In this document: in pieces, positions 32,660 to 38,441 of the stretch | How the letters are laid out: each line of letters opens with the position of its first letter | How positions within the stretch are numbered: position 1 is the first letter of the stretch | IMG/VR virus record: IMGVR_UViG_3300044982_000128 | Coordinates: 12,839-76,838 of that record | From: a virus | Strand: one strand, 5' to 3' | Length of the DNA: 64,000 nt | Program-made: the position numbers and the translations under genes | The notes under the pieces: generated by a model | The model's input: the letters and a program-made list of their open reading frames with translations, nothing else | What the model was told of the DNA's origin: nothing | Database searches by the model: none

Positions 32660-33012
32660 TAGGCCCTTACAATCTTTTTTGACTCGCCTTGTCTATCTGG
32701 CGTACACCCATAGCGAACGTGAGCCAGATCGGGCAATCGCGTCCAACTAAAGCGGGATTCCTTCACCTTGACACGGATGGGGGAGTTCCTAAGAATCTAG
32801 ATGGACAATCGGACGCGCACCAGCTCGCCGGCGCCAGTGTCGACGTCCGAATACCCCCTATGGAGTCCCCACTCTGGAAAGTCGAGCCCCCTCTCGCCGG
32901 CCGGATACGGGGCTCTCTTCTCCTTCTAAGAGGGCATACAAAATATTCAAAATTTTCTAGGTTGCAAACAAACCAAGTTGTGTTACGGTGGTTCTCGGAA
33001 AGGAAAACAACA

Positions 33013-33573
33013 ATGAGGATCACTATCACTGAAGCCTTGCAGGAAATCAAGACTCTGGTCGCCCGCATCCAGAAAAAGCGGGAGTCGGTCAAACCATATC
33101 TATTGAGAGATAGCCGTATTAAAGATCCTTTCGATAAGGACGGTGGCGTGGAAAAGTTCATTCGTGAGGAGAGGCAGTCTATCGGCGATCTGGAGGCCCG
33201 GATCATTACTATTCGGACTCAGATTCAAACATCAAATCTCGCCTCGGCTTTAGCTATTGGGGAAACGACTCGCTCGGTTGCTGAGTGGCTCACCTGGCGC
33301 CGGGAAATCTCCAAAGGTCAGAAGGAGTTTCTGCAGGTGATCTGGCAGTCTATCCAGGCCACCCGGCAGCAGGTTCAGCAGAAGGGAGGCCGGGTGGTGG
33401 CAAACGTGGCCGTGTCCACATCTGTCGCTTACACCCAGGACACTCCTCCGGAGGTCTTAGTGGGAGTTGACGAACAGGGTTTACTCAAGGAGATCGAGGC
33501 GATGGAAGAGACTCTTGGCGTGCTTGACGGTCGTTTGAGTCTCTTCAACGCAACTACCACAATCGAAATTTAA
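33013..33573 (+). CDS. DIP1984/DUF6847-like coiled-coil protein (186 aa)
   Basis: AAGGA RBS; N-terminal ITEAL.EIK.L..RI, internal SVAEWL and C-terminal LD..LS..NATT.IE match my recollection of this family; not database-verified. Confidence 0.6.
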   Translation: MRITITEALQEIKTLVARIQKKRESVKPYLLRDSRIKDPFDKDGGVEKFIREERQSIGDLEARIITIRTQIQTSNLASALAIGETTRSVAEWLTWRREISKGQKEFLQVIWQSIQATRQQVQQKGGRVVANVAVSTSVAYTQDTPPEVLVGVDEQGLLKEIEAMEETLGVLDGRLSLFNATTTIEI

Positions 33574-33579
33574 TCGGTA

Positions 33580-33878
33580 TTCCGCTTTCGGTAGCGAAAT
33601 GGGATAACAATGAGGATTTGTCAAACTAGCTCAATTGGTAGAGCGGTCGATTTTCAATCGACAGGTAACAGGTTCGATTCCTGTGCTTGACTGTCTCGCT
33701 AGAGACTTTGATGAAGAAGCTGAAAGTTAAATTCTGAAAGCTGCTTTGCTCAAGTCTGAACACTGAAAGAGAACAAGATGCTCAAAACCCTTCGTAAACC
33801 CGGCGGCGCTGGAGACAGAGCCGATGTCCTTCCTCAAAGGGGCATTCTCAGGGTGAAGGCAGCAACTTGGAAGCGGAA
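33580..33878 (+). ncRNA. Putative ~300-nt structured RNA with embedded tRNA and heptamer array
   Basis: Closing helix TTCCGCTTTCGG (33580-91) with TTGGAAGCGGAA (33867-78); internal hairpins including a GAGA tetraloop; no credible ORF. Confidence 0.7.
33620..33692 (+). tRNA. tRNA(-like) cloverleaf, anticodon TTC (Glu) on a Lys-like body, no encoded CCA
   Basis: GTCAAAC/GCTTGAC acceptor (one mismatch), GCTC/GAGC D-stem, GTCGA-TTTTCAA-TCGAC anticodon arm, ACAGG-TTCGATT-CCTGT T-arm. Confidence 0.85.
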
Positions 33879-35066: not shown

Positions 35067-35352
35067 CGAAGCGCCGCGGCAACCCCAACTGGGGCCGGTC
35101 TGTCGATCAGATGCCCATCATGCCCGTTTCACCTTCCGGCTGGGACATGCTTCTCTACCGGCTTAACCTGAGTCCGGACAAGGCGCTCAGTAATCCGCAG
35201 GTCAGGGATTATATCCTCAAGCACCATCGCAATCGATTCGTCCCCGAGAAGGTTCTCGAACATTTTTCGCTTGATACCCGCTTCTTCGATTGATCAAATC
35301 AACTCACCCGTCTTTCACGAATTCAGTGTACGATTCTCAGTGGAGTCCAAAC

Positions 35353-35895
35353 ATGGCTCATGATCGTTACCTTCTCGAACTGCTCGACACCTGCCTCAAG
35401 ACGATCGAGCGCCAGACCAGGCGCCTGGACCACGAGGCTCAGGAAGATCGTGAGACCCTCCGCCTGATTCAGCACGAGCTACACACCATCGCAGAAGAGC
35501 TTCAGTCCCCTCCCACTCTGCCTCCCCCGCCGCCCTCAAACCTCGCAACCAGCATCAGTTTCAAGGAGACCTCTATGCTTCCGACCACAGGTGGCAACAC
35601 CCTTGTCTACACCGGCACTCTGGCCCCCGCGGGTTCAGTATTTGCGCCGGACGCAACCTTCACTGTTTCAAGCAACGATCCGGCTGTCCTGCCCACCGTG
35701 GACGCGACCGGCTTGATCGTCACCGTTCCGCTGCCTACCGGCTGGGTGGAGTCGACGACCACTCCTCTGGCCATCGCCTACACATCCGCGAGTATTAGTA
35801 CTGGCCAGACGTTGACTGCGACGATTACACCGAGCGCGCCGCCTCCGCCTCCCCCGGTCTTGGCAACAAGCATCGGTTTCACACAAACGACCTAG
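35353..35895 (+). CDS. Coiled-coil plus Ig-like domain protein with nested internal start at 35575
   Basis: GGAG RBS at 35342; second RBS AAGGAG (35563-68) before in-frame ATG 35575; FTVSSNDPAV Ig-like signature. Confidence 0.65.
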   Translation: MAHDRYLLELLDTCLKTIERQTRRLDHEAQEDRETLRLIQHELHTIAEELQSPPTLPPPPPSNLATSISFKETSMLPTTGGNTLVYTGTLAPAGSVFAPDATFTVSSNDPAVLPTVDATGLIVTVPLPTGWVESTTTPLAIAYTSASISTGQTLTATITPSAPPPPPPVLATSIGFTQTT

Positions 35896-36340
35896 TTCTC
35901 CCTGCAGCGGCGCAAGTCTGACGCATGGACACCGTCGCTGCAAACGGTTCTCGGACCTAAACCGAGTGGTGGAGGGACGGTCACCACGATGCCCCCAAGT
36001 TAAGCATGTCAACGCTGTAGGGAAGTGATTTCGGACGCGGGTTCGATTCCCGCCATGTCCACCAACAAGCCCTTGCTGCGCGGGGCGGCTATTGATACGT
36101 CAATCCGTGATGCAGAGTTCAAGGGCTTGTTTGTGGGCATGCCAAGGTTTCGACGGAATCAGCGAACTCCAGTTTCATGCCGGGATTGATGCTCACCGTA
36201 ACGAGAATCAAACTGCAACTGCGGAACCTTTCGCATTGCCGATGGCTGCCTAAGAAACAACCATCCGAGGTTTGGCCGCGTTCCTTGTCAAAGAATACGC
36301 GGTAAAGGAAAGGGCTCCAGCTTCGGCTGGGGCCTTTTTG
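35896..36340 (+). ncRNA. ssrA: Circularly permuted (two-piece) tmRNA
   Basis: Acceptor piece ends T-arm GCGGG-TTCGATT-CCCGC + CATGTCC-A-CCA (36064); intervening hairpin 36065-36134; coding piece starts GGGCATG (36135), giving G3.U70; tag ATAEPFALPMAA* at 36215-36253; pseudoknots on both pieces. The 5' boundary is approximate. Confidence 0.92.
36311..36340 (+). terminator. Rho-independent terminator ending the tmRNA transcript
   Basis: GGCTCCAGC-TTCG-GCTGGGGCC followed by TTTTT. Confidence 0.85.
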
Positions 36341-36369
36341 TTGACAATACATTCCAATCGTGACATGAT
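36341..36369 (+). promoter_or_regulatory. Sigma70 promoter, probably leaderless transcript
   Basis: TTGACA-N17-CATGAT with TG extension; ATG at 36376. Confidence 0.65.
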
Positions 36370-36375
36370 TAATCC

Positions 36376-36987
36376 ATGACCCGCGATCCCATCCCCCCGC
36401 TTCCACCTCAAATCCTTTCTACACAATCTCTGCTCGCCGCGCGCGATCTGCTTTCTCCGGCTGACTTCCGCCTGCGCCTGCGCAAGACCCTGCTGGCCAA
36501 CCCGAATCTGACTCTGCTCCAGGTGGCGCGGGAACTCAAAGTCACCCGGCAGTGCGTCGGCGCCATCGTCGGCCGCCTGAACCGTTCCACCGGCAAACCC
36601 GCGATCAAGCGAGAGCAAGCCAAGGCCAAGATGGCCGAGCTGCGCGCCATGGTAGCCGCCGGCGAGTCCGCGGAGCATGCAGCGAAGGAACTGGGGATCA
36701 GTCTGGGCCAGGCGATGACGCTGGGCTTTCGATCAAAGGCTGTGCGAGCGGTCCACGGAACGCAGGCGCGATCGGCCGCCGGGTGCGGTTGCTGGCGTTG
36801 TCGACGCGCGGCAGGTATTGCTGTTCCACGTGGAACAAAGATGGATTCGCGAGCGAAGGCTGAGGTTCTCGACCTTTTGGCCTACGTGGACCCGGATTCG
36901 GGAGAAGGTTTGAGCCAGAGACGAATCGGCGAGATGGTCGGTGCAGGGCAGGCTGCGATTTCGAGGATTGCGAGGGCAGCGGAATGA
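36376..36987 (+). CDS. Multi-HTH DNA-binding protein
   Basis: LTLLQVARELKVTRQCV, AAKELGIS and LSQRRIGEMVGAGQAAISRI; HGT...GCGC..CR Zn motif. Confidence 0.7.
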   Translation: MTRDPIPPLPPQILSTQSLLAARDLLSPADFRLRLRKTLLANPNLTLLQVARELKVTRQCVGAIVGRLNRSTGKPAIKREQAKAKMAELRAMVAAGESAEHAAKELGISLGQAMTLGFRSKAVRAVHGTQARSAAGCGCWRCRRAAGIAVPRGTKMDSRAKAEVLDLLAYVDPDSGEGLSQRRIGEMVGAGQAAISRIARAAE

Positions 36988-37901: not shown

Positions 37902-38441
37902 ATGAATTTCGGCAGTGTAGACTCGCCCAGAACGGTCAAAGCTTTGAATAAATTGGCGGAGTTCTTGGAGATGGAGAATTCTGTCCGGTCCATCAAGGCC
38001 GAACTCGCTCACGGCAAAGTTGTAACTCGCGATCGACAGACGGGCAAAACCACAGCTCTACTGGAGTTTGTTCACGAGCACGATCCAGCCAATATGATTA
38101 TTGTCTGCTGCAACCACATCACGAAAGATTTGATTTCGTGTCGTTACCGAGAGATGTTTCCAGAAGACGCGCGACCGTCTGTGATTTCGATACATAATGT
38201 CAACGACAGCGATGTGCGCGGGACCAATCGTAAATGGGTCACCGATGAGGTCTGGCCGGCTGCAGTGGTAAGGAGAGCCCGGAGTTACAGTTGGGCTGAA
38301 TACGCCGGTGGTGTTGGAACTCCGATGTGTATGGACGCCTTTAGCGGTCAGTGGTTGACCGGAGAAGAAACAGAAAAACCGGAGTCTCCGCAGCCTGTGT
38401 TTACGCAGGTCAGTGACGGAAAGAGAAAAAGTAATGGCTGA
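37902..38441 (+). CDS. Short P-loop-like protein (terminase-ATPase-like fragment)
   Basis: RQTGKTT and WVTDE in only 179 aa. Confidence 0.45.
   Translation: MNFGSVDSPRTVKALNKLAEFLEMENSVRSIKAELAHGKVVTRDRQTGKTTALLEFVHEHDPANMIIVCCNHITKDLISCRYREMFPEDARPSVISIHNVNDSDVRGTNRKWVTDEVWPAAVVRRARSYSWAEYAGGVGTPMCMDAFSGQWLTGEETEKPESPQPVFTQVSDGKRKSNG

Follow-up and report, generated by a model that had tools for sequence, protein, structure and literature searches.

Within the 64-kb stretch of phage DNA analysed here (henceforth the window) lies a circularly permuted tmRNA gene. Very probably it is an intact two-piece gene of the kind originally reported from Betaproteobacteria, and the phage that carries it is complete, 77 kb long and has terminal repeats; the RNA of the gene would tag stalled proteins with the help of host factors, and the gene would have arrived in the phage lineage as a 396-bp cassette.

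The source record is a 76,838-bp IMG/VR phage with direct terminal repeats, rated 100% complete, and encodes a primase, a family-A DNA polymerase, an exonuclease, a helicase, a methyltransferase and a large terminase. The best matches of its DNA polymerase are to Ralstonia phages (55% identity), which may be taken as a weak hint at the identity of the host. As already stated in a preliminary description of this DNA, no smpB gene or SmpB protein is found in the window, and this extends to the whole 76.8-kb record, so the RNA would depend on host SmpB. The whole record also contains no tyrosine integrase, which argues against the gene being the remnant of an integration site.

Identification and structure of the permuted gene

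ARAGORN called a permuted tmRNA at positions 35972-36344, with the same tag, ATAEPFALPMAA, that had been read from the sequence before, and the Rfam model tmRNA_permuted (RF04321) could be aligned in full (positions 1-213 of 213) with the region 36004-36253 and scored 94 bits, where its cut-off is 47 (whole-window E=6.5e-17). The region is a real permuted tmRNA gene, a chance match being excluded, and the proposal of a complete circularly permuted two-piece tmRNA stands on both of these results. Its features and those of its immediate surroundings are as follows, with the evidence in brackets.

35903..35943, + strand: 10-bp hairpin across the left insertion junction (MFE and centroid folds)
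35909..36304, + strand: tmRNA cassette, 396 bp (alignment with contigs L122 and L123; tblastx synteny with L124 and L125)
36004..36064, + strand: core of the acceptor piece (RF04321 alignment, ARAGORN, sequence)
36004-36008 and 36026-36033, + strand: P2 3' strands in the acceptor piece, GCAUG and UGAUUUCG
36037-36053, + strand: T-arm
36054-36060, + strand: acceptor 3' strand CAUGUCC, followed by the discriminator A (36061) and the encoded CCA (36062-36064)
36065..36134, + strand: intervening segment, 70 nt (fold score, phage copies, bridging soil contigs)
36135..36180, + strand: 5' half of the tRNA-like domain, with GGGCAUG, GGUUUCGAC and the P2 5' strands CGGAAUCA and CAUGC (36176-36180) (Rfam alignments)
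36181..36211, + strand: candidate PK1 (RF04321 hairpin; stem 2 by eye and by analogy with other phage copies)
36215..36253, + strand: tag reading frame (ARAGORN; collinear family codons)
36266..36302, + strand: PK2 (family alignment, pair counts, covariance model built without the window)
36313..36340, + strand: intrinsic terminator with a 9-bp stem, UUCG loop and T-run, hairpin at 36313-36334 (terminator scan, L122 alignment)
36341..36369, + strand: sigma-70-type promoter, TTGACA, 17 nt, CATGAT, with a TG extension (promoter scan, conserved in L122)

The order of the gene is that of a permuted tmRNA, the 3' half of the tRNA-like domain lying upstream, followed by the intervening segment and then by the 5' half. 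Direct reading of the sequence placed the individual elements where they had been reported: the acceptor 3' strand CATGTCC occupies 36054-36060 and is followed by ACCA, the last base of which is 36064, while GGGCATG occupies 36135-36141 and supplies G1 (36135). Together the two halves form a seven-pair acceptor stem in which G3 (G36137) stands opposite U70 (U36058), and the alanine identity elements, i.e. this G3.U70 pair and the A73 discriminator (A36061) ahead of the encoded CCA, bear out the alanine-type acceptor described earlier. T-arm, encoded CCA and P2 pairs are all intact, both by inspection and in the RF04321 alignment.

The tag frame begins with a GCA resume codon and reads, over the 12 codons for ATAEPFALPMAA and the stop, GCA ACU GCG GAA CCU UUC GCA UUG CCG AUG GCU GCC UAA. 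With the exception of a 6-nt Pro-Met insertion, these codons are collinear one for one with the GCA AAC GAU GAA nnn UUC GCU UUA GCU GCC UAA of the phage two-piece family. At the protein level, the frame keeps E, F, A, L and the final AA of the family tag ANDExFALAA in register, has T and A where the family has N and D, and adds the Pro-Met pair. The tag ends with a hydrophobic ...AA followed by the stop, as is required of a permuted tmRNA, and endings like ...PMAA and ...LMAA are found in other phage and bacterial tags. Its N-terminus is ambiguous: ARAGORN resumes at GCA 36215 (tag frame 36215-36253, 12 residues), in agreement with the preliminary description, whereas the RF04321 alignment prefers the in-frame GCG at 36221 as resume codon, which would give the 10-residue tag AEPFALPMAA. 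Since the frame is collinear with the tag codons of the family, the comparison supports the resume codon at 36215.

A recurrent group of phage two-piece tmRNAs in IMG/VR (L014, L023, L033, L070, L098, L104, L114 and others) has tags of 28-31 residues that have a pattern in common (e.g. ...TGEVTVSGKN.KFSAR...LAV) and greatly exceed the usual tag length of 10 residues. Several of these long-tag tmRNAs are located in large tRNA clusters.

Pseudoknots of the coding piece

Beyond the tag, the sequence CGAGG (36266-70) pairs with the loop sequence CCUUG (36283-87) in 5/5 positions, and this loop belongs to a 5-bp hairpin of CCGCG (36276-80) with CGCGG (36298-302); together they make up PK2. In other phage copies an RGG located after the stop codon and upstream of the hairpin likewise pairs with the CCU that opens the hairpin loop UCCUYGUAACAGAAU. 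When 63 phage loci were aligned with the window and compared with 500 shuffles, 84.5% of the cells in the two PK2 helices were paired, a value that none of the 500 shuffles matched, and the pseudoknot stem was seen to swap G-C for A-U (49 G-C vs 7 A-U at one pair). A covariance model of PK2 built from the 63 phage loci, with the window left out, had a sole significant match in the 64-kb window, at 36263-36305 (21.2 bits, E=5e-4). The PK2 loop of the window agrees with the family consensus at 14/17 positions and its pseudoknot partner is identical. Judging from these comparisons, at least 63 other phage two-piece tmRNAs possess a pseudoknot homologous to the one that follows the tag here. Of the version of this pseudoknot that had been drawn before, the hairpin CCGCG/CGCGG is retained, but the partner of the loop is the upstream CGAGG and not the downstream AAGGAA. 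We rejected TTCCTT/AAGGAA as a conserved pairing because AAGGAA (36306-11) lies outside the inserted cassette, in the phage backbone, and because covariation in the family favours the upstream partner.

For PK1 only a candidate can be offered. Its stem 1 (CGG 36181-83 with CCG 36196-98) is a hairpin within the RF04321 alignment, and its stem 2 (CUC 36192-94 with GAG 36203-05) was drawn by eye; the putative topology is the same as that of the covarying PK1 in other phage copies. Stem 2 could be extended to nine positions with one mismatch (UUGAUGCUC, 36186-94, with GAGAAUCAA, 36203-11), in which case only 3 nt would separate it from the resume codon, an unusually short distance.

PK2 and the candidate PK1 are both on the coding piece, which is the usual arrangement in two-piece tmRNAs (PMC3985003). 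The earlier suggestion that pseudoknots are kept on both pieces found no support: the 108 nt upstream of P2 (35896-36003) fold no better than shuffled sequences (z=-0.83), and the corresponding stretch of the beta_tmRNA model (RF01850), its first 50 positions, is unpaired and reads as a TTGA...TATAAT promoter with no RNA structure. All that could be drawn by eye as an acceptor-piece pseudoknot was a 3-bp GGG:CCC contact, and we discarded it. The other phage copies likewise lack structure ahead of their acceptor piece; about one third have a clear promoter there, and the rest follow tRNAs or genes.

The intervening segment and the integrity of the assembly

The 70-nt intervening segment is closed by the inverted repeat that had been noticed at first reading, an 11-bp stem between ACAAGCCCTTG (36065-75) and CAAGGGCTTGT (36120-30), and a 4-nt leader (UUGU) separates this stem from G1. 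The segment folds better than shuffled sequence (z=-2.68), and both the stem-closed design and the U-rich leader recur in other phage copies. A gene concealed inside the spacer was ruled out, since 70 nt leave no room for an ORF.

None of the public sequencing runs contained more than 11% of the sampled sequence words, and none the whole stretch. We compared the stretch with contigs from four public runs, which are short and of low depth and are independent of the IMG/VR assembly. Contigs of three soil-metagenome studies cover 35893-36105, 35918-36054 and 35949-36146 at ~93-96% identity, their indels being confined to the upstream hairpin. The junction between CCA and spacer (36064/36065) is crossed by two of them (35893-36105 and 35949-36146), that between spacer and G1 (36134/36135) by the contig covering 35949-36146, and the left insertion junction by the contig covering 35893-36105. 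Because independent contigs run through these junctions a mis-join is unlikely, and the bridging of the spacer argues against a mis-assembly there.

The only RNA-library contig matching the stretch comes from a different organism. This metatranscriptome contig of 166 nt matches 35993-36064 and 36145-36183, only 13 other letters replacing the intervening 80 nt (spacer plus the initial 10 nt of the coding piece), and it seems to represent a permuted tmRNA from another organism in which the spacer is very short.

Relationship to known two-piece tmRNAs

Two-piece tmRNAs encoded by permuted genes are known from Alphaproteobacteria, some Betaproteobacteria and some cyanobacteria (PMC3985003, PMC3968760), the betaproteobacterial ones through the work of Sharkady and Williams (2004), as cited in PMC3985003 and PMC11915505. 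Among phages, a survey of 18,146 genomes yielded 53 distinct two-piece tmRNA structures (PMC9004378), the tmRNA of Stenotrophomonas phage Marzo has been described as 'Betaproteobacter-class' (PMC8928761) and the 2025 tmRNA database includes 79 phage sequences (PMC11915505).

In a permissive Rfam search, RF01850 aligned with positions 35960-36337 from end to end (model 1-331 of 331) with 63.3 bits, the top score of clan CL00001 on the stretch in an output from which clan competition removes the alpha and cyano scores, though below its own cut-off of 84. To place this score we scanned IMG/VR for the same layout, i.e. T-arm, CCA, a spacer of 45-75 nt and then GGGnnUG....GGUUUCGAC, and this one pattern scan recovered it in at least 119 contigs. 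ARAGORN called a permuted tmRNA in 116/120 of the other extracted copies among the matches listed, and most tags among the listed phage copies are of the ANDExFALAA type. When 13 other phage loci were scored, 8 passed the cut-off of the beta model (84-129 bits) and the other 5 passed only RF04321, like the window. As the beta scores of other phages run from 129 bits to below the cut-off, the window copy is on a continuum of such scores among phage copies. Several phage copies could be aligned with it over ~280 of 299 core bases, with ~68% of the core identical. By these measures the gene is best read as a divergent member of a large, mostly phage-borne population of beta-type tmRNAs.

Like the RF01850 type, the window gene has the order acceptor piece, spacer, coding piece, and the same break point, the coding piece ending past PK2 and the acceptor piece beginning at the P2 3' strand; the tag between PK1 and PK2, the common PK2 loop sequence and the terminal hairpin are also shared. 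Unlike that type, it has no TTGA...TATAAT promoter in front, its spacer is longer (70 nt), its acceptor stem differs, its tag is ATAEPFALPMAA instead of ANDExFALAA and its terminal hairpin is a terminator that belongs to the phage.

In blastn against the phage collection, the top match was a Stenotrophomonas phage tmRNA, with 74% identity between the T-arm and the 5' half, spacer included. The tmRNAs of the T4-like Stenotrophomonas phages Mendera, Marzo and Bhz51 (PMC8928761) are, like ours, phage-borne and permuted with a stem-closed spacer, whereas they differ in belonging to 160-kb myophages, in lying within a tRNA cluster, in carrying the tag VAANDDSYTVRIAA and in passing the beta cut-off. 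For Bhz51 (GenBank OR797040, in which ssrA is annotated) ARAGORN reported tmRNA*, and the scores of 118 bits for RF04321 and 92 bits for RF01850 confirm a permuted, beta-type gene. The OM43 phage Melnitz and related marine myophages (PMC9004378) similarly combine a permuted phage ssrA with the lack of a phage smpB, but the Melnitz RNA is of alphaproteobacterial type and has a glutamine riboswitch, whereas the window RNA is of beta type and its region had no riboswitch match in Rfam. Given that phage-borne two-piece tmRNAs are in print (PMC9004378, PMC8928761), the novelty originally claimed for this gene does not hold, and the comparisons returned a strong match to a two-piece family that is already known and is broken at the same point.

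The acceptor stem CAUGUCC/GGGCAUG is unusual, its one other occurrence in these searches being on an unrelated metagenome contig. An exact-pattern scan found it on no other permuted tmRNA in IMG/VR, and the strict pattern gave none in the representative genomes of 185,579 bacterial and archaeal species, among which a relaxed pattern recovered only tRNAs and the one-piece tmRNAs of unrelated phyla. Two contigs in the JGI metagenomes share the T-arm and the acceptor strand and are otherwise unrelated, one of them with a different permuted tmRNA. From these IMG/VR, 185,579-species and JGI stem searches, no donor or host for the cassette was identifiable. The permuted tmRNA on a metagenome contig (L179:679-1142) has the T-arm and the acceptor 3' strand in common with the window gene and is otherwise unrelated to it; this tmRNA has a 31-residue tag and lies directly after a tRNA-Met.

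A cassette between a gene and its terminator

The 396-bp cassette sits between the stop codon region of the gene at 35290-35895 and the terminator of that gene. On two IMG/VR contigs, both flanking genes (35290-35895 and 36376-36987) have counterparts whose proteins are 75-77% identical, and in the closest phage kin the same two genes are ~96 bp apart with no tmRNA by either ARAGORN or RF04321. At the left junction the stop codon and TTCTCCCTGCAGC are common to window and kin; at the right junction AAGGAAAGG, the terminator hairpin with its T-run and the TTGACA promoter of the next gene are. Direct repeats flanking the cassette were not found. Aligned with these tmRNA-less kin, the flanks are collinear and the boundaries of the insertion can be mapped to the base, which we read as a recent and precisely bounded event. 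The hairpin predicted across the left junction (35903..35943) may be a processing site.

The terminator reported after the tmRNA is indeed present (hairpin 36313-34 and T-run), and belongs to the phage backbone, as it is also found in the tmRNA-less kin; it aligns to the terminal hairpin of the beta_tmRNA model. The promoter at 36341-36369, which serves the gene 36376-36987, is likewise part of the backbone and lies outside the tmRNA. Upstream of the acceptor piece the promoter scan found no promoter. About two thirds of the phage copies also lack an upstream promoter of their own, which is hence not a defining feature of phage copies. Having neither a recognisable promoter nor a terminator of its own, the cassette would use the upstream operon and the backbone terminator. 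One might go further and see in the tmRNA a minimal mobile cassette (396 bp, with promoter, terminator, repeats and nuclease of its own all absent) whose divergent acceptor stem and Pro-Met tag reflect phage-specific use, e.g. altered recognition by host proteases or adaptors, and not drift; we regard this as rather unlikely.

Other segments of the window also differ from the kin. The segment 33006-34232 comprises the 3' part of ORF 32689-33573, a tRNA-Glu(UUC) at 33620-33692 and a structured region behind it; its equivalent in L125 is only ~214 bp long. None of the kin loci has a tRNA, so this tRNA region looks like lineage-specific cargo, as the tmRNA does. An ORF of 179 aa at 37902-38441, with no Pfam match, has no counterpart in L124 and L125, where its flanks abut, and is a third small insertion relative to these kin. 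The gene downstream of the tmRNA (36376-36987), 75-77% identical in the tmRNA-less kin, has weak matches to helix-turn-helix and sigma-70 region 4 domains, and its product is possibly a phage transcription factor.

Alternative explanations

It had been suggested that the gene is an independent, phage-borne permutation, which would have arisen from a one-piece ancestor and converged on the known two-piece layout. We consider this very improbable. Convergence of the known two-piece lineages on a coding piece with PK1 and PK2 has been described (PMC3985003), so the layout of the break alone is no proof of common descent. The agreement with the phage set, however, goes beyond the break layout to the spacer, which shares its stem-closed form and U-rich leader, to the tag codons, which are collinear, and to PK2, with a loop at 14/17 of the consensus and the same pseudoknot partner. 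The RF01850 score under the cut-off would suit an independent origin, but the alignment covers the model completely and its score leads the clan, and other phage copies fill the range of scores up to typical beta members. Similarly, the acceptor stem stands alone among the permuted tmRNAs of IMG/VR and of the 185,579 species, and the searches brought up no close relative among bacteria or viruses, yet several phage copies agree with the window RNA in ~68% of its 299-nt core.

Also very improbable, in our judgement, is that the cassette is a recent and possibly decaying passenger, or a decoy that ties up host SmpB and so blocks host trans-translation. Sister phages live without the cassette, it has no promoter of its own and its tag is atypical, and a precedent exists in mycobacteriophage DS6A, for which an RNA consisting only of the tRNA-like domain is reported to inhibit host tmRNA (PMC4131195, PMC11915505). 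Here, in contrast, every conserved element is intact, including an in-frame tag ending in AA-stop and both pseudoknots, and the related soil contigs preserve acceptor piece, spacer and the start of the coding piece at ~93-96% with indels only in the unconstrained upstream hairpin. Finally, the permuted order could in principle be created by a mis-join, and phages that integrate into ssrA do carry tmRNA fragments (PMC4383910), so that the gene might be an assembly artefact or a fragment of a host tmRNA left from an integration site (an attP-type remnant). This reading is largely refuted and retains almost no probability: contigs of three other studies cover the left junction, acceptor piece and spacer as well as the beginning of the coding piece, the gene is complete and not a 3' fragment, there is no integrase, and the flanks are collinear with the kin to the base.

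Proposed function and origin

Starting from the gene structure, the family relationship and the insertion established above, we infer for the beta-type two-piece tmRNA the following course of transcription, processing, charging and tagging. Transcription would probably reach the gene by read-through from the rightward operon whose last gene is 35290-35895, and would stop at the terminator of that gene. Host tRNA-processing enzymes would then excise the stem-closed 70-nt spacer, RNase P acting at G36135 and 3' trimming stopping at the encoded CCA, and the products would be an acceptor piece and a coding piece. These would be held together by the acceptor stem and helix P2, a pairing evident from both the sequence and the model, and would form a tRNA-like domain expected to accept alanine. 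Assisted by AlaRS, EF-Tu and SmpB of the host, the RNA would then enter stalled ribosomes, where it would append ATAEPFALPMAA to the unfinished protein, the hydrophobic ...AA end of which would mark it for host proteases. A mechanism of this kind has its parallel in Caulobacter, where a permuted gene gives rise to two RNAs that work jointly in trans-translation (Keiler et al. 2000, as cited in PMC3985003). By analogy we propose the same mechanism for the window RNA; the Caulobacter RNA differs in being alphaproteobacterial and chromosomal and in having a demonstrated function.

For the tmRNA of Melnitz, a role in ribosome rescue and recycling during infection has been proposed (PMC9004378). 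Following that argument, the likely benefit to our phage would be that ribosomes are kept free while mRNA is broken down during infection. As to its origin, the gene would have entered the phage lineage by insertion of the 396-bp cassette between a gene and its terminator.

The finding does not change current knowledge of how permuted tmRNAs arise. What is distinctive and mildly interesting here is the clean insertion of the cassette, with tmRNA-less sisters at hand, together with the atypical acceptor stem and tag. Its value lies in the correct annotation of a divergent phage tmRNA, one that escapes the lineage-specific Rfam model and is detected only by the merged one. The sister phages with and without the cassette also provide a natural before-and-after pair, which could show what a phage gains from a ribosome-rescue RNA of its own.
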